64,000 nucleotides of DNA. Origin: Vicinamibacterales bacterium. GTDB taxonomy: Bacteria > Acidobacteriota > Vicinamibacteria > Vicinamibacterales > UBA8438. Shown here one piece after another: positions 1-46,065 of this stretch (the stretch's first letter is position 1; every line of letters starts with the position of its first letter). Both the position numbers and the translations under genes were made by a program. The notes beneath the pieces are model-generated. The model was not told the DNA's origin. It made no database searches and worked only from the letters and a program-made list of their open reading frames with translations. The stretch lies in contig OZ241896.1 of assembly GCA_965203565.1 (NCBI GenBank), forward strand, positions 876,182-940,181, read 5' to 3'.

Positions 1-1868
1 CCGTACTGGAACGTCAGCGTCTTCGTCCCGCTCCCGCCCGCGTAGCCCGCCTGCCGCGTCGCGCTCCCGATCGTCAGCGCCAGCCGGGGCGTCCCCGTCA
101 CCGTCACCGGGACCTGGAAGCCCACCTCCACCGCGATCGTCTCCCCCGCTCCATACGTGTCCCCGCTCGCCGGACGGCTCGAAAGCGCCACCGAGGTCAC
201 CGCCGGCGCCGGCGCCGTCGCCCCGTTCACCTTGTGGGCCGCCTGATTCGTCAGGCCTGCGTGCGCCAACGTCACTGAGCCGCTGAAGGCCACTCTGAAG
301 CCGGCGTTGTTGTGGGCCAGCGCGTTCGCCCCGATGCTCAGCCCGTCCGCGTCCACGTCCGCCGCCTGCACCACGTACGCGAACGTCAGCGTCTTCGTCC
401 CGTTCCCGCCCAGAAACGCCGCCTGCCGCGTCGCGTTCCCGATCGTCAACGCCAACGTCGGAGCCCCTCCTGCATCTATGCTGAGGGAAACCGGGGCGAA
501 CCCCACCGCCACCTCGATCCGCTCCCCCGCCCCGTACGTATCCCCGCTCACCGGCCGGCTCGCGAGCGTCAGGGACACCACCCGCGCCTCCGGCGCCTGG
601 TACCCGTTCACCTTGTGCCCCGCCGCATTCGCAATCGCATGCGTCCCCAGCCCCGGGATGGCGCTGATCGTCCCCCCGTTCAACGCCAGCGCGCCCGCCC
701 CGATGCTGATCCCGTTCGTGTCCGCGTCCTCGAACTGCACCACGTAGGCGAACGTCAGGGTCGCCGTCCCGCTCCCGCCCGCGTAATCCGCCTGCCGCGT
801 CGCGGTCCCGATCGTCAACGCCAACTGCGGACTCCCCGTCACCGTCACCGCCGCCGTGAACGTCACCGCCGCGCGGATCGTCTCGCCCCGCTTGTACGTG
901 TCCCGACTCTGCTGAGTGATTGGATGGGGCGCCGGACTGCTGCTGATCGCCACCGCGCTGACCGTCGGGGTCGCCGCGGTTCCGTCCACCTTGTGGCCCG
1001 CTTGGTTCGCCAGGGCGTGCGTACCCAACGCCAGCGCCGCGTTCGTCATCGCGGCGCTCCGGATCGTCCCGCCGTTGAGGGCCAGCGCGCCCGCCCCGAT
1101 CGCGATCCCGTCGCTGTCCGCATCGGCCGCCAGCACCGTGTAGCGGAACGTCAGCGTCCGCGTCCCGCTGCCGCTCGCGTACTCCGCCTGTCCCGTACTG
1201 GTTCCGATGGTCAGCGCGAGCCGCGGCGTCCCCGTCACCGTCACCGGAATCTGGAACCCCACCTGCGCCGAGATCGTCTCTCCCGCCCCGTACGTCATCC
1301 CGCTCGCCGGACTGCTGGCGATCGTCACCGCACCGACCGCCGGGGCCGTCGCGGCGCCGTTCACCTTGTGGCCCGCTTGATTCGCCAGGGCGTGCGTGCC
1401 CAACGCCAGCGTCGCGTCGGTCATCGCAGCGCTTTGGAGGGTTCCGCCGTTGAGGGTCAGCGCGCTCGCCCCGATCGCGATCCCGTCGCTGTCCGCATCG
1501 GTCGCCAGCACCGTGTAGCGGAACGTCAGCGTCCGCGTCCCGCTCCCGCTCGCGTACTCCGCCTGCCCCGTACCGGTTCCGATGGTGAGCGCGAGCTGCG
1601 GCGTCCCCGTCGCCGTCACCGCGATCGTGAACCCCACCTGCACCGAGATCGTCTCTCCCGCCCCGTACGTCATCCCGCTCGCCGGACTGCTGGCGATCGT
1701 CACCGCACTCACCGCCGGCGCGGTCTGCGAGAAGGCGGGCGGGACCTGCAGCAGGACCAGAAAGGCGAGGACTCCGAGGCGCCGGGCGGACGTTACTCCC
1801 CCCCCCCCCCCCCGAAGATTCCGGAGCCGTTCCAGCGGTCTTTGCGGCCCTGTGGAATACGCGCGCAT
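1..1868 (-). CDS. Secreted tandem-repeat surface protein (Ig-like beta-sandwich repeats); N-terminus complete, C-terminal part continues past the left window edge
   Basis: Absent from ORF track (no stop inside window). Hand translation of the minus strand from ATG 1868..1866: MRAYSTGPQRPLERLRNLRGGGGGVTSARRLGVLAFLVLLQVPPAFSQTAPAVSAVTIASSPASGMTYGAGETISVQVGF... It has a signal-peptide-like hydrophobic core. There are five copies of a ~123-132-aa repeat (..GTPxLALTIG....QAxY..GSGTxTLTFxY.V..DAD.DGI.IGA.AL.LNGGT...LGTHALANQAGHKVNG). The DNA marker GAACGTCAG recurs at 9, 381, 750, 1146 and 1521. The frame is still open at base 1 (..GTKTLTFQY). Confidence 0.7.
   Translation of the reverse strand, partial: MRAYSTGPQRPLERLRNLRGGGGGVTSARRLGVLAFLVLLQVPPAFSQTAPAVSAVTIASSPASGMTYGAGETISVQVGFTIAVTATGTPQLALTIGTGTGQAEYASGSGTRTLTFRYTVLATDADSDGIAIGASALTLNGGTLQSAAMTDATLALGTHALANQAGHKVNGAATAPAVGAVTIASSPASGMTYGAGETISAQVGFQIPVTVTGTPRLALTIGTSTGQAEYASGSGTRTLTFRYTVLAADADSDGIAIGAGALALNGGTIRSAAMTNAALALGTHALANQAGHKVDGTAATPTVSAVAISSSPAPHPITQQSRDTYKRGETIRAAVTFTAAVTVTGSPQLALTIGTATRQADYAGGSGTATLTFAYVVQFEDADTNGISIGAGALALNGGTISAIPGLGTHAIANAAGHKVNGYQAPEARVVSLTLASRPVSGDTYGAGERIEVAVGFAPVSLSIDAGGAPTLALTIGNATRQAAFLGGNGTKTLTFAYVVQAADVDADGLSIGANALAHNNAGFRVAFSGSVTLAHAGLTNQAAHKVNGATAPAPAVTSVALSSRPASGDTYGAGETIAVEVGFQVPVTVTGTPRLALTIGSATRQAGYAGGSGTKTLTFQY
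1798..1813. repeat. 16-nt homopolymeric C tract (poly-G on the coding strand) inside the 5' end of CDS 1..1868
   Basis: Counted directly: C at 1798-1813, flanked by T1797 and G1814. On the minus strand it encodes RGGGGG between ATG 1868 and the signal-peptide core. No ATG/GTG/TTG lies in frame between the tract and the hydrophobic core. Confidence 0.95.
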
Positions 1869-1923
1869 GGGATCGGGAATTATAAGCGCCTGCGATGCCA
1901 GGCCGGACCGCTCCCGCACGTAG

Positions 1924-1954
1924 TCATTTCCAATTCAGAAATGAGCCTGAAGGC
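1924..1954 (-). repeat. 33-nt motif, copy L (inverted relative to copies at 5825-5891 and 45143-45176); possible IS terminal inverted repeat
   Basis: The reverse complement reads CCTTCAGGCTCATTTCTGAATTGGAAATGACTA. Compare CCCTTCAGGCTCATCTGTCGTTGGAAACAACCTC (5825) and CCGTTCAGGCTCATTTGTCGTTGGAAGAGACTC (5858). Confidence 0.55.
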
Positions 1955-2542
1955 GGGCGGTGATCCGCGCCTGTCAGGCGACCGAACCGACGGGTCGAAA
2001 AGGGGTTCGGCGCGGGCCGCGCTCCGGACGGCCCGACCAGGCGATTATCGCTCATCGTCGTGTGAGTGAGGTTGCCCCGATTCTGCGAACGGGTTGACGC
2101 TTTCGGGTTCAGCTCATGCCGTGGTTTTCGGTGGGAGCACCTCCATGATGCAAGCGCTGTGGACCTGTGGGAATCTCGCGGCCTCGGCGCCGGCTCGATC
2201 GCCAGCGGTCGCCCGCGAGATTTCCAACGGACTGTGGGCGCCCCGTATCCCCGATCTTCCGGATGCATCCCGCTGCGGACCGGGCGTCCATAGGCCGGGC
2301 AGGTCCACAGCGCCCGGCGGCGATACGGGGCGCGGTGTGCGGCCAGGCGGCCGGCCGGCGGTCGCAACACCCGGTCTGCTGGCCCTGTCAGGCAGCCGGG
2401 TCGAGGGAGCGAAACAGCCGCTCGCGCGCGAGGTTGAGGGCGCGCGCGGCCTCGTTGTCGCTGCGGGCCGTGGCGACAGCGTCGAGTGGGTCGAAGGTGG
2501 TTCCGGGCTTGAGGCAGGCGGCGGCGGCGGGCAGCGACTTGG

Positions 2543-2700
2543 CAGCCCGTGGTGGAATCCCGCGTCGCACCGAGAGCGGCGAGGCGCCCGCCTGACAAGG
2601 CGTGAGGAGGGCGCATATTGGGCATACGCAACCGACGAACAACGCCGTCAGGCGGGATGCATCGCTGCTCGAATGCAGCGGAGACTTTCACCACGGGCTG
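2543..2700 (+). mobile_element. 158-bp MITE, copy a (inserted in the transposase pseudogene C-terminal region)
   Basis: Termini CAGCCCGTGGTGG...CACCACGGGCTG. Flanking 4-nt repeats are TTGG (2539-2542) and TTGA (2701-2704). Removing the element plus one repeat (162 nt) joins ..TPYERL to KSLPAAA.. in frame. Confidence 0.85.
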
Positions 2701-3305
2701 TTGAGCCTCTCGTAGGGGGTCATGACGTCCGCGGGGCGATAGCGCTTGCGGATCCGGCCCTGGGCATCGACCTGTTCGCGGGGGAAGAAGCAGGGGCGGT
2801 GGAAGTTGAGGTAGGGGGAGAGGACCTGCTGGGTGAAGGCGTTGACCTGCTCGGCGTAGCGGCTGGGGATGTGGCCGTGGCCGAGATGCTTCCGGAGCAC
2901 GGAGCCGTTCTTTGCTCTCGACCAGCGCATTGTCGTTGAGGACCGGGAGCAGGCAGGCGGCGTGGATGCGCTCGACCGAGCCGATGCACTGGAACTGCGT
3001 GACTTCGTCCACCAGATTCAGATGGTGGAGGCCCTTGATGCCGTCCAAATCGCCCTGATGGACCGTATCGACCCGGACCCAGCCGGGCCGTCCGAACGGC
3101 TGCGGGCGGCGGCGTTCCCCAATCGCGACCTGCGCCGGGCGGGTCGGCTGAGGGATCGCCCCGCGGCGCCGGGCATAGGTCGTCGAGCGTCGCAGGTTGT
3201 ACAGGTGGCTGATCAACGACAATTATTTTGGCCGGTCGTCGAGTGGAAATGGCCACGTGAAAAGGGACCCCCCAGCTTCCGTCAACCGGTCAATCGATAG
3301 CTCAC

Positions 3306-3464
3306 CAGCCCGTGGTGGAAACCCCGCGTCGCACCGAGAGCGGCGAAGCGCCCGCCTGACAAGGCGTGAGGAGGGCGCATATTGGGCATACGCAACCGAC
3401 GAACAACGCAGTCAGGCGGGATGCATCGCTGCTCGAATGCAGCGGGGTCTTTCACCACGGGCTG
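3306..3464 (+). mobile_element. 159-bp MITE, copy b (nested inside the HNH element)
   Basis: Same termini as copy a. A perfect 4-nt flanking repeat TCAC lies at 3302-3305 and 3465-3468. Confidence 0.85.
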
Positions 3465-3713
3465 TCACACCGCTGCGCACGAGCACGCTGCGGGTGGTGC
3501 GGGCCTTTCACTTTTTTCGCAGAAAGTACTTGACAGGATTTTTGTCGTCCCCTGCCGGATCTTTGGAACAGCCCTCAGCATGCCCCTCCGGCGGCCTCAG
3601 CCGCCTTCTGAGAGCCGTACGCCCACCGGAAGGTCGAAAAGCATTGAACGGACCGGGAACGGCCGCCTGAGAGCCGTACAAGCGGCTGAAAAACAAGGGG
3701 TTATCATAGGCGC

Positions 3714-4946
3714 ATGCCCCTCGAAACCACACCGGTTCCGGCCCCGTTTTCGCCTTCCGTCCGCCCTGTCCTTCCTCCGACGGCGCGCACCGCTTCCATT
3801 CCGGACCAACCCGATGCCGATCTCAACCGGTTGGCCGACCGGATCGCCGAACTCTCCGCCCGCATCCAGGCCGCCACCTATGCTCTGCTCGTCCTCATCC
3901 AGCAGTTCGACGAGCAGGGCGGCTGGCGGCCGGGCGGCTTCTCCTCCTGCGCCCACTGGCTGAGCTGGCGCACCGGCCTCGCCCCCGGCGCCGCCCGTGA
4001 GAAGGTGCGCGTCGCCCACGCCCTGGCCAAGTTGCCGCTCATCGGCGCCGCGATGCTGGCGCACGACGCAGCGGCGGCGCAGGGGGCGGATCATCCGACG
4101 TACGTTCCCGCGGGAATGTCTTCGGTCGTCCGACCCACAGCAGCCGGCCGCGCTACGGCAATCCGCCAGCCGGGAAGCGACGACGCGGCAGGCATCGGCG
4201 ACCCGCAGGGTGCGGCTGGCGACTCGGTTGACTCGGCGCCGACGGACATCGTATCGACCGGAGGAGAGCACGTTCCCGCGGGAACGCGCCGGCCGACGGG
4301 AGGCTCCGACGGGTCACATCCCGACGCCGCTGCTCGCGTCGCGCATGGTCAGGCGGTGCTGGAGGACGCCGGCGGGCTGCGCGTCTCCGCGGAAACGGCG
4401 CGCCGGCTGGCGTGTGACGCCGGGCGGGTCGTCATGACCCACGGCGTGGCCGGGCAGGTGCTGGACGTCGGCCGGAAGACGCGCACGATCCCGCCGGCGC
4501 TCCGCCGTGCGCTCGCCGCGCGGGATCGGCGTTGCCGCTTCCCAGGTTGCACGGCCCGGCGGTGCGATGCGCATCACGTCCGGCACTGGGCGCACGGCGG
4601 CGCGACCCGGCTCGACAACCTGGTGCAGCTCTGCCGGCGGCATCACCGGGCCGTGCATGAAGGCGGATTGCGGGTGATGCTCGACGACGCAGGCGCGGTC
4701 CGCTTCACGCGGGCGGACGGCCGGCCGCTGCCGGAGGTTCCGGAACCACCGCGCTGGACGGGGGCGGCGCTGGCGCCGGTGGACGCGCGGCTGGCGGCGG
4801 CGGGGATCGCGATCGGGCCAGGTGCGGCGATGCCGGCGTGGACCGGGGAGCGGCTGGATCTCGGCTGGGCGATGCGCGTGCTGTGGCGTCCGCGCGCGAG
4901 TCCGGCCGGGGCCGCGTCGGACGGGCCGCCGCCTCCGCCGGCGTGA
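3714..4946 (+). CDS. HNH endonuclease, DUF222/13E12-repeat-like (410 aa; central region low-complexity, possibly degenerate)
   Basis: ORF track 3714..4946. The N-terminus (LADRIAELSARIQAATYALLVLIQQFDEQGGWRPGGFSSCAHWLSWRTGLAPGAAREKVRVAHALAKLP) is typical of DUF222. The C-terminus carries LDVGRKTRTIPPALRRALAARDRRCRFPGCTARRCDAHHVRHWAHGGATRLDNLVQLCRRHHRAVH (HNH). Confidence 0.8.
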   Translation: MPLETTPVPAPFSPSVRPVLPPTARTASIPDQPDADLNRLADRIAELSARIQAATYALLVLIQQFDEQGGWRPGGFSSCAHWLSWRTGLAPGAAREKVRVAHALAKLPLIGAAMLAHDAAAAQGADHPTYVPAGMSSVVRPTAAGRATAIRQPGSDDAAGIGDPQGAAGDSVDSAPTDIVSTGGEHVPAGTRRPTGGSDGSHPDAAARVAHGQAVLEDAGGLRVSAETARRLACDAGRVVMTHGVAGQVLDVGRKTRTIPPALRRALAARDRRCRFPGCTARRCDAHHVRHWAHGGATRLDNLVQLCRRHHRAVHEGGLRVMLDDAGAVRFTRADGRPLPEVPEPPRWTGAALAPVDARLAAAGIAIGPGAAMPAWTGERLDLGWAMRVLWRPRASPAGAASDGPPPPPA

Positions 4947-5658
4947 CGCAGTGGTGGGACCGGCGCTGCTCGTCCGCGCGCGGAGGGACCGACGTTTCCG
5001 CCGCCGCCGCCCGTGCCCCGCGGGCGCGCCCCCGGCCCGCTGCTGCCCCGAACTCGCCGCTGGCCGCCCTCGTGACCCCCGGACGGTGTCCGCGAGCCGA
5101 GCAGCCGATCTCAATCCATGGTGAGCTGAACCGGCCAGAATAATTGTCGCCAAGCGGCCAAAGTAGTTGACGCTGAACAGGTGGCCGTTGGAGATCCGGG
5201 CCAGGCGCTCGAAGCGGCCGTCGCCGAACAGGCGCCAGGCGCGCGCACAAAGGGCGCGCGTGGCCGGGCCGGACAGCGTGCCGTGCAGCGCGTCCGTCTC
5301 GGCCAGCAACCCGATGTCGGCGCGGGTGTAGCGGCGGGCGAACGGCCGGCGCGGAGCGCCGCGCCGGTCGGTGACCGCGCCGGTGGTCCGGTGTTGGCGC
5401 AGCAGGCGGGTGACCTGCGCCCGTGACAGACCGGTCGCCCGGCTCAGAAAGCGGCGCAGCAGGCCCTTGTCGGGCTTCCCGCACAGGGCGTAGTCGAACC
5501 GTTGCACGGTCGTGGCCACCAACGCGCAGGCGTCGGCGCGGCGGTGCGGTTGCAGGGCGATCCCCGCGCTTCCGGCCAGGAACTCCCGAACCTGATCCAG
5601 GGTCTGCAGGCGGTGCGTGTCGAGTCTCACGATCATCCTCCGATGATCCGCGACTCGG

Positions 5659-5816
5659 CAGCCCGTGGTGGAATCCCGCGTCGCACCGAGAGCGGCGAGG
5701 CGCCCGCCTGACAAGGCGTGAGGAGGGCGCATATTGGGCATACGCAACCGACGAACAACGCCGTCAGGCGGGATGCATCGCTGCTCGAATGCAGCGGAGA
5801 CTTTCACCACGGGCTG
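5659..5816 (+). mobile_element. 158-bp MITE, copy c (between the transposase start and the putative IS end)
   Basis: Nearly identical to copy a. A perfect flanking repeat TCGG lies at 5655-5658 and 5817-5820. Confidence 0.85.
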
Positions 5817-5824
5817 TCGGCCCC

Positions 5825-5891
5825 CCCTTCAGGCTCATCTGTCGTTGGAAACAACCTCCCGTTCAGGCTCATTTGTCGTTGGAAGAGACTC
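5825..5891 (+). repeat. Two tandem copies of the 33-nt motif (R1 5825-5857, R2 5858-5891); possible duplicated IS right end
   Basis: Read directly. They are inverted relative to copy L at 1924-1954, and together they bracket the transposase pseudogene. Confidence 0.55.
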
Positions 5892-5895
5892 ACGT

Positions 5896-5924
5896 TTGAC
5901 CAGCCGATGGCCGCCTACTAGAAT
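5896..5924 (+). promoter_or_regulatory. Sigma70-like promoter for gap operon: TTGACC-N17-TAGAAT
   Basis: TTGACC at 5896-5901, a 17-nt spacer, then TAGAAT at 5919-5924. It lies 67 nt upstream of the gap ATG and immediately follows motif copy R2. Confidence 0.55.
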
Positions 5925-5990
5925 GAAGCGTTTGTGCGCGCCGTCCGCGCGCACGCACAGGAGGCGCCACTTTTTCCGGAGGCGGCAGGC

Positions 5991-42675: not shown

Positions 42676-42833
42676 CAGCCCGTGGCGGAGGTCCCCGCTG
42701 CATTCGAGCGGCGATGCATCCCGCCTGACTGCGTTGTTCGTCGGTTGCGTATGCCCAATATGCGCCCTCCTCACGCCTTGTCAGCCGGGCGCCTCACCGC
42801 TCTCGGCGCGACGCGGGACTCCACCACGGGCTG
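42676..42833 (-). mobile_element. 158-bp MITE, copy d (reverse orientation), 49 nt upstream of the ABC-F start
   Basis: The reverse complement aligns over its full length with copies a-c and e. The flanks are TCGA (42672-42675) and TCCGA (42834-42838). Confidence 0.8.
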
Positions 42834-45129: not shown

Positions 45130-45142
45130 TCCGCGACACGGT

Positions 45143-45176
45143 CCCGTTCAGGCTCATCTGCCGTTGGAAGAGACTC
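45143..45176 (+). repeat. Solo copy (S) of the 33-nt motif
   Basis: CCCGTTCAGGCTCATCTGCCGTTGGAAGAGACTC is nearly identical to R2 (5858-5891). It is followed by TTGACG (45183-45188)-N18-TATCGT. Confidence 0.6.
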
Positions 45177-45810: not shown

Positions 45811-45967
45811 CAGCCCGTGGTGGAACCCCGCGTCGCGCCGAGAGCGGTGAGGCGCCCGGCTGACAAGGCGTGAGGAGGGCGCATATTGGGCATACGCAAC
45901 CGACGAACAACGCCGTCAGGCGGGATGCATCGCCGCTCGAATGCAGCGGGGCTTTCACCACGGGCTG
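45811..45967 (+). mobile_element. 157-bp MITE, copy e, ~100 nt upstream of the giant gene start
   Basis: A perfect flanking repeat TTCA lies at 45807-45810 and 45968-45971. Confidence 0.85.
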
Positions 45968-45994: not shown

Positions 45995-46011
45995 CCCCCC
46001 CCCCCCCCCCC
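45995..46011. repeat. 17-nt homopolymeric C tract, 34-55 nt upstream of the giant CDS start
   Basis: Counted directly. An in-frame TGA at 46018-46020 shows the tract is outside the giant CDS. Confidence 0.95.
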
Positions 46012-46065
46012 GGACGCTGACGCCTCGCCGCCGACCGCCGCCCCGTGCCGTCGCCTCTTCAGCCC

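Follow-up and report, generated by a model that had tools for sequence, protein, structure and literature searches.

A DUF222-HNH gene as the probable cargo of a non-autonomous IS21-family derivative inserted in a second insertion sequence

The DUF222-HNH element and its insertion footprint

The 64-kb stretch of contig OZ241896.1 analyzed here (the window, to whose numbering all positions without a locus designation refer) contains an insertion sequence (IS), designated IS-H, whose minus-strand transposase gene is interrupted by a 1,970-bp element at 3210-5179 that encloses a DUF222-HNH gene. An earlier note, made from the sequence alone, had described a discrete element with inverted repeats and a target-site duplication at this position, and this description holds with small corrections, among them that of the length, which had been given as 1,967 bp. 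The termini, 5'-TG...CA-3', were defined from related copies (designated by L numbers). As the note had proposed, the only gene inside the element is the plus-strand open reading frame (ORF) at 3714-4946, whose 410-aa product matched Pfam DUF222 (PF02720, 47.3 bits, cut-off 24.4) and HNH (PF01844, 27.2 bits, cut-off 21.4).

The HNH motif of this protein is kept and its DUF222 match is split by an internal deletion. Relative to the 565-aa intact form, which is encoded in L064 and L151, the window gene has lost ~155 codons in frame: residues 1-111 and 284-565 of the intact protein P0002 align to the window and residues 112-283 are missing. At least seven DUF222-HNH paralogues (P0001, P0003, P0008, P0009, P0243, P0255, and P0265) are present on the 3,949,503-bp contig carrying the window gene.

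The element is bounded by a CAGGTGGC direct repeat at 3202-3209 and 5178-5185, which the earlier note had recognized as an 8-bp duplication with its right copy at 5177-5184. The duplication is genuine, and its length is 6 bp, GGTGGC, at 3204-3209 on the left and 5180-5185 on the right. Judging from the aligned copies, the "CA" that makes GGTGGC look like an 8-bp duplication is the conserved terminus of the element. The related copies all start with TGATCAACG and finish with ...GAACA, corresponding in the window to a start at 3210 and to ...CTGAACA ending at 5179. The 22-nt left end had no matches in 100 shuffles of the window, and the chance that a 6-bp repeat would abut ends that were set independently from other copies is ~1 in 4,096.

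Within these limits, the inverted repeat CGACAATTATTTTGGCCGG at 3217-3235 pairs with CCGGCCAGAATAATTGTCG at 5131-5149 (minus strand) at 18 of 19 positions, as noted earlier with right-hand coordinates one base too low (5130-5148), and a repeat search lengthened this pair to 31 nt at 81%. Because the true ends are fixed by the other copies, 5131-5149 is the inner of two right-end repeats, and the terminal repeat is CGGCCAAAGTAGTTGACGCTGAACA at 5155-5179 (minus strand), of which the earlier note had seen a part, at 5154-5169, and taken it for a secondary, degenerate copy. The terminus of this outer repeat (...GAACA) is conserved in L009, L024, L047, L051, L064, L148, and L151, and when it is aligned with the left end, terminus to terminus, 20 of 25 positions match, namely the terminal CA, which is common to both, and 18 of the first 23. 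The element thus has two clear repeats at its right end (5131-5149 and 5155-5179) and one at its left.

Removal of 1,976 bp (3210-5185) leaves a single open frame in the minus-strand transposase gene, ...FERLARISNGHLYNLRRSTTYARRRG..., so the rejoining of the host frame that had been noticed earlier (on deletion of 3210-5184) is borne out. The footprint had been likened to a clean pair of empty and filled sites, and an uninterrupted site was found in L066, a contig from another metagenome, where the same transposase gene runs unbroken across the insertion point (...ARISNGHLYNLRRSTTY...; DNA ...TACAGGTGACCGTTGG..., protein ...ARISNGHLYNLRRSTTYARRRG...) and contains one GGTGAC in place of the two GGTGGC copies of the window. 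On comparison of the two sequences, L066 is a genuine empty site.

The ends of the element belong to the IS21 family

A scan for the core of the inverted repeat (query CGACAATTATTYTGGCCGG, one genome per species) gave 62 loci, many of them in Vicinamibacterales metagenome-assembled genomes (MAGs) and some in other phyla. IstA was encoded beside the repeat in 18 of these loci and IstB in 18; a DUF222-HNH gene was near the core in none of the 62. Two of the loci hold complete elements, L024 (2193-5224) and L051 (2068-5112); their left end is that of the window element, and their right ends have its two-repeat layout and differ by one or two bases. Between their ends lie an ORF of ~480 aa (524 aa as called) and an ORF of 310 aa, and the L051 proteins were identified by NCBIfam as an IS21 family transposase (184 bits, cut-off 160) and an IstB helper ATPase (210 bits, cut-off 200), the latter also matching Pfam IstB_IS21 (160 bits). 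A further full-length copy, in L147, likewise shares the window termini and the inner right repeat nearly throughout and encodes IstA and IstB above the NCBIfam cut-offs. The target duplications of four IS21 relatives, which were read by joining adjacent 8-kb blocks, were TTCGT, CGGAC, GGAGG, and ATCGCC (5-6 bp); in the IS21 family, target duplications range from 4 to 8 bp (ISfinder). The repeats that the earlier note had suggested comparing with known IS families therefore match a DDE family, IS21, with the transposase encoded elsewhere, the outcome that the note had named as simple cargo capture.

BLAST matches between the window element and the full-length copies were confined to 3209-3243 and 4999-5179. 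On the left, all that remains of the IS21 end is the 34-bp arm at 3210-3243 (plus strand), which consists of the terminal inverted repeat (TIR) TGATCAACGACAATTATTTTGGCCGG and eight further nucleotides (TCGTCGAG) and is identical to the left ends of L024, L051, L007, and L147. The right arm is longer (~180 bp), retaining both right-end repeats and the last istB codons (~100 bp of the istB 3' end); the istB remnant and the region downstream of it (4999-5130, plus strand) are 92-93% identical to L024 4512-4620, L051 4393-4489, and L047. The inner repeat at 5131-5149 corresponds to a second IstA-type site, as in all full-length copies, which share the two-repeat layout.

Between istB and the right end, the full-length copies have ~550 extra bp (L024 4447-4772, L051 4447-4946) that are absent from the window element and from L032. 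This stretch holds an inverted duplication of ~170 bp and a small dispersed repeat that is also present in L047, L049, L053, and L060.

The window element resembles IS21 family members in its termini, which are shared nearly base for base with elements encoding IstA and IstB, in the 5'-TG...CA-3' ends with repeated subterminal sites (two repeats at the right end), and in its short, 6-bp duplication. Unlike an autonomous IS21, which encodes IstA and IstB, it has no istA, only the last codons of istB, and a foreign DUF222-HNH interior, and it would be incapable of moving itself. Because neither IstA nor IstB is encoded, we regard it as a derivative and not as an autonomous member of the family.

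The DUF222-HNH cassette

A foreign cassette of ~1.75 kb stands where istA and nearly all of istB were. Its edges are reproducible, and the left one is formed by one or two units of a repeat, (G)TGGAAATGGC...GAAAAGGGACCCCC (window 3243-3272, L147 3281-3334, L065 7021-7075), which we refer to as the A repeat. In the window the A repeat, (G)TGGAAATGGCCACGTGAAAAGGGACCCCCC, and a spacer occupy 3243-3305 (plus strand), and the same repeat precedes the cassettes in L147 and L065 as two tandem units. It is followed at 3306-3464 (plus strand) by a 159-bp miniature inverted-repeat transposable element (MITE) with TIR CAGCCCGTGGTGGAA and a 4-bp duplication, TCAC, a secondary insertion that neither L064 nor L151 has at this site. 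The cassette ends with a 3' tail at 4947-5005 (plus strand) whose junction with IS21 falls inside a CCGCCGCCGCC run. The composite (that is, the cassette between IS21 ends), L152, and L065 are alike up to ...GACGTTTCCGCCGCCG, ~60 nt past the stop codon, and from there diverge into three different flanks.

The region upstream of the HNH gene (3465-3713, plus strand) is 84-96% identical in L064, L065, L066, L147, and L151. It contains a TTGACA box (3530-3535) and, at a spacing of 59 nt, two CTGAGAGCCGTAC repeats. The 60 nt preceding the ATG hardly vary between contexts and include a TATCAT, located 6 nt before the start codon, that could indicate a leaderless transcript. The conserved TTGACA box was not called in a sigma-70 promoter scan. 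In an Rfam search of 1900-5950, at the gathering threshold and at E <= 1, the sole match was a chance miRNA inside the MITE, and hence no known RNA such as HEARO or omega RNA lies beside the HNH gene.

The best-known relatives of the cassette gene are the REP13E12 loci of Mycobacterium tuberculosis, which share with it the pairing of DUF222 and HNH and the multicopy state. The copies of the window family are also mosaic-looking, which fits frequent recombination. They differ in phylum (judging by where the near-identical IS21 copies are found, the window is most likely from an acidobacterium of the Vicinamibacterales and not from an actinobacterium) and in that at least one route of spread, on IS ends, is visible for the window cassette; we know of no such route defined for REP13E12.

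Other copies of the composite

The composite recurs, with its internal junctions unchanged, in L064 (1691-3961), a locus from a different metagenome with unrelated flanks. It has the IS21 left arm, the A repeat, the upstream region, the istB-remnant junction, and both right repeats; it lacks the MITE and its 565-aa gene is intact. In L151 the composite occupies the same position in IS-H, and IS-H itself lies at a different chromosomal site (L151 1235-5640), before an HpcH/HpaI aldolase gene and with a 5-bp duplication of CCGGC/CTGGC as opposed to CACGT in the window. In L148, the orthologous gap-pgk-tpi-secG locus of another sample, the right junction is shared and an additional deletion is present. 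The copies in the window, L063, L148, and L151 share one site and one GGTGGC and represent one insertion event. A metagenome scan with the HNH protein added no composites, its matches being confined to relatives with 34-67% identity in the best segment. Of the further copies and empty sites for which the earlier note had proposed a search, an empty site was found in L066, and the second context of the composite, L064, is without a duplication.

Six nucleotides from the right terminus, all copies of the composite share a derived base (GACGCTGAACA or GACACTGAACA, versus GCCGAACA or GTTGAACA in the full-length elements). Because this base lies so close to the end, its presence in every composite argues for transposition of the entire unit with its termini and against recombination between resident copies of IS21. 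The composite is found at other sites in L064, in its second context, and in L151, where it reached a second site through movement of its host IS. As the L151 copy of IS-H carries the composite at another site and with another duplication, IS-H must have moved after it was hit by the HNH element and, its transposase being dead, must have done so in trans together with its nested cargo.

Terminal repeats are not a general property of DUF222-HNH genes

We also surveyed 80 metagenome loci with DUF222-HNH relatives (34-67% identity in the best segment), of which 33 had usable flanks. The inverted repeats of the window element were found at none of the 80 distant loci, and neither IstA, IstB, nor the IS-H transposase was encoded nearby at any of them. 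For these 33, the highest-scoring inverted repeat across the gene averaged 22.4 bits, the same value as the direct-repeat control (22.4 bits). Even among close copies of the HNH cassette, those in L065, L066, L147, L149, and L152 are without IS21 ends. TIRs and target-site duplications are therefore not a general property of DUF222-HNH genes. Of the two alternatives that the earlier note had left standing, the transposition of DUF222-HNH elements with classical hallmarks of their own is not supported at these loci, and the capture of the gene by a non-autonomous element is supported by the identity of the repeats as IS21 ends, whose IstA and IstB are encoded in full-length copies elsewhere.

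A probable mobile insertion cassette and the alternatives to it

Taken together, these results make it very probable that window 3210-5179 is a non-autonomous IS21-family derivative of the type called mobile insertion cassette (MIC), with the HNH gene as its cargo. The prototype of these elements is MIC231, which is derived from IS231 of Bacillus cereus. As in other MICs, IS ends flank a passenger gene that does not encode a transposase, no transposase gene lies inside, a target duplication bounds the unit, and mobilization in trans by the cognate IS is presumed. The window element differs from MIC231 in its origin from IS21 and not from IS231 (IS4 family), in its selfish-looking HNH cargo, and in being nested in a second IS that also moved. 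MICs and transporter ISs (tIS) are both categories of ISfinder/ISsaga (PMC3129680).

Under this model, full-length relatives would supply the DDE transposase IstA and the AAA+ helper IstB in trans, and these proteins would have recognized the element ends and inserted the cassette into the IS-H transposase gene, thereby producing the 6-bp duplication GGTGGC. The HNH protein would have no role in the insertion step and would be only a passenger. Later the window copy gained the MITE and lost ~155 codons of its DUF222 region, and in view of the latter loss we consider it to be decaying. As read from these copies, the HNH gene spreads by nested hitchhiking, since it is the cargo of an IS21 derivative within IS-H, which has itself moved to a second site.

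Several observations weigh against this model. In tblastn searches, no similarity to IstA or IstB was found in the 64-kb window, and among the best 120 IstA relatives there was none on the window's own 3.95-Mb contig. With only one clear IstA-type repeat at the left end, the mobility of the element might be reduced or abolished. Finally, the L064 composite has no target duplication and lies amid rearranged IS debris beside a truncated istA, so that the full signature of duplication and empty site is available for one insertion only. The assembly ERZ25068358 contains both the composite (L151) and a full IS21 (L147), on separate contigs.

The alternative that survives best, and that we nevertheless consider unlikely, is that a complete IS21 entered IS-H and that its istA and istB genes were then swapped on the spot for the HNH cassette by nested insertion and deletion, in which case the composite itself would never have transposed and its other copies would be due to IS-H transposition and recombination. 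Such a replacement is compatible with the single insertion event, with its one GGTGGC, behind the window, L063, L148, and L151 copies, with the situation of the one independent copy (L064), next to a truncated IS21 istA and without a duplication, and with the right junction in CCGCCGCCGCC microhomology, which is typical of illegitimate recombination. It is difficult to reconcile, however, with the finding that the identical composite, including its two termini and the derived base close to the right one, recurs between unrelated flanks in L064, as sequence so near the terminus is not transferable by recombination with a resident IS21 copy. In addition, the composite was formed once, somewhere, and this exact site is no likelier a place than others.

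A second alternative, which we rate as very improbable, is that the HNH protein acts like a homing endonuclease, cutting intact IS copies whose repair from an HNH-bearing copy swaps the transposase genes for the cassette by gene conversion. This would account for a cassette that replaces the transposase in several IS backbones, of which three are occupied (see below), although in IS-H only the C-terminal part of the transposase is lost and the left IS end alone was located (L066). The left flanking homology available in the IS21 composite is just 34 bp, the cassette also lies beside ordinary genes (L149 and L152), and IS-rich regions gather nested insertions and deletions without any special mechanism. 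To our knowledge, no cleavage site or activity has been described. A point in favor of conversion is that the REP13E12 (DUF222-HNH) loci of M. tuberculosis, which have no defined biological function, rank with the commonest gene-conversion tracts of that species (PMC13061034).

That the DUF222-HNH enzyme itself moves the element, with the inverted repeats and target duplication as its own hallmarks, would suit its position as the sole gene within the element, but has next to no probability given that the repeats belong to IstA/IstB elements, that 80 other loci lack them and 33 have no flanking repeats above control, and that the window gene is internally deleted.

We therefore favor the MIC interpretation and set aside the idea that DUF222-HNH genes transpose with inverted repeats and target duplications of their own. 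The window and its relatives document a route by which such a gene can become multicopy, namely when carried by an IS21 derivative that lacks a transposase and is itself nested in a second mobile IS; our literature search found no paper tying DUF222-HNH genes to IS21 ends. For annotation, IS21 ends in Vicinamibacterales MAGs can enclose cargo other than transposase genes.

The cassette in other IS backbones

The HNH cassette was found in the backbones of three unrelated ISs, namely IS21, IS-H, and an IS with A-repeat ends ('IS-A'), and in each it replaces the transposase gene wholly or in part. The replacement is complete or nearly so in the IS21 composite and in L147, where both IS ends are kept. 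In L066 it is limited to the C-terminal portion of the IS-H transposase, and after the cassette comes the left end of IS-H, the only IS end located there. The L147 cassette sits between inverted pairs of A repeats, the inverted one being at L147 5733-5679, where it adjoins a truncated IstA-like start. This IstA-like ORF start (MSQWAEIRHMHLVEGVAK; transposase start MSQWAEIRHMHLVEGV) comes after the right-hand pair and is truncated by being fused to the HNH 3' end. From this arrangement, the A repeats are probably the ends of a second IS, of which no full-length copy was found. A scan of viral contigs for the A repeat gave no matches. A possible inverted match of the A-repeat region to the IS21 leader in L023 and L025, and a tIS model for L147, gave no consistent picture.

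These residences could reflect either ordinary nested insertion and deletion in IS-rich DNA or a targeted takeover. We entertain, with considerable doubt, the idea that the DUF222-HNH cassette is itself a discrete unit of ~2.3-2.6 kb and that its genes are parasites of insertion sequences which take over IS ends. If so, the takeover may proceed through gene conversion that the nuclease triggers or through the serial formation of cassettes, with transport by the remaining intact IS copies, and IS parasitism would be a concrete mode of spread for the long-unexplained multicopy families of the REP13E12 type. The recurrence of the cassette in IS backbones is a lead for these repeats, and may also be just the decay of an IS graveyard.

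At L065 4587-7410, two cassettes are arranged head to tail: ~10 nt beyond the HNH cassette begins a second, truncated one, represented by its left edge and upstream region. Upstream of these tandem cassettes are 3' fragments of IS21 and a left end of IS-H.

The host insertion sequence IS-H and the MITE

IS-H extends from 1922 to 5890 on the minus strand, with TIR AGTCATTTCCAA... and a 5-bp duplication, CACGT, at 1917-1921 and 5891-5895; its right end has a doubled repeat, TTCAGGCTCATYTGTCGTTGGAA. The rve-type transposase starts at 5636 (minus strand) and is dead, being interrupted by the HNH element and by a MITE at 2543-2700 and having an internal deletion with a frameshift near 2930. Its homologue on a Polaromonas plasmid, a 432-aa rve-domain 'integrase', is 45% identical, and both it and the IS-H transposase score below the IS481 and IS3 family cut-offs. 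Kinship between the ends of the HNH element and those of IS-H was considered on the basis of a common 9-mer, CAACGACAA; this lies 4 nt from the termini in one case and 12 nt in the other, with no further likeness, and was taken as chance after the IS21 match. Elsewhere in the window there is a solo IS-H end at 45140-45176, within which the lone copy of the right end lies at ~45147-45169.

The MITE (157-159 bp, TIR CAGCCCGTGGTGGAA) is present in five copies in the window, at 2543-2700, 3306-3464, 5659-5816, 42676-42833 (minus strand), and 45811-45967; those at 2543 and 5659 are 158 bp long as against 159 bp at 3306. It folds as one long hairpin (z = -10.4) and, beyond the chance miRNA similarity mentioned above, has no Rfam match. 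Its 4-bp duplications are TCAC, TCGG, TTCA, and TTGG/TTGA, and a C always precedes them. Empty sites were found in L064 for the 3306 copy and in L148 for the 5659 copy, and more MITE copies are present in L064, L065, L066, L147, and L151. At the L151 site that matches window 5659-5816, the MITE is in the opposite orientation.

Long poly-C tracts (14-18 nt) are found at 1800-1813, a short way outside the left end of IS-H, and at ~45995-46012, just after the MITE at 45811-45967. Window 1-1730, within a long gene, contains diverged tandem repeats (77-83% identical, at offsets of ~400-900 bp) that appeared as off-diagonal BLAST matches against L063.

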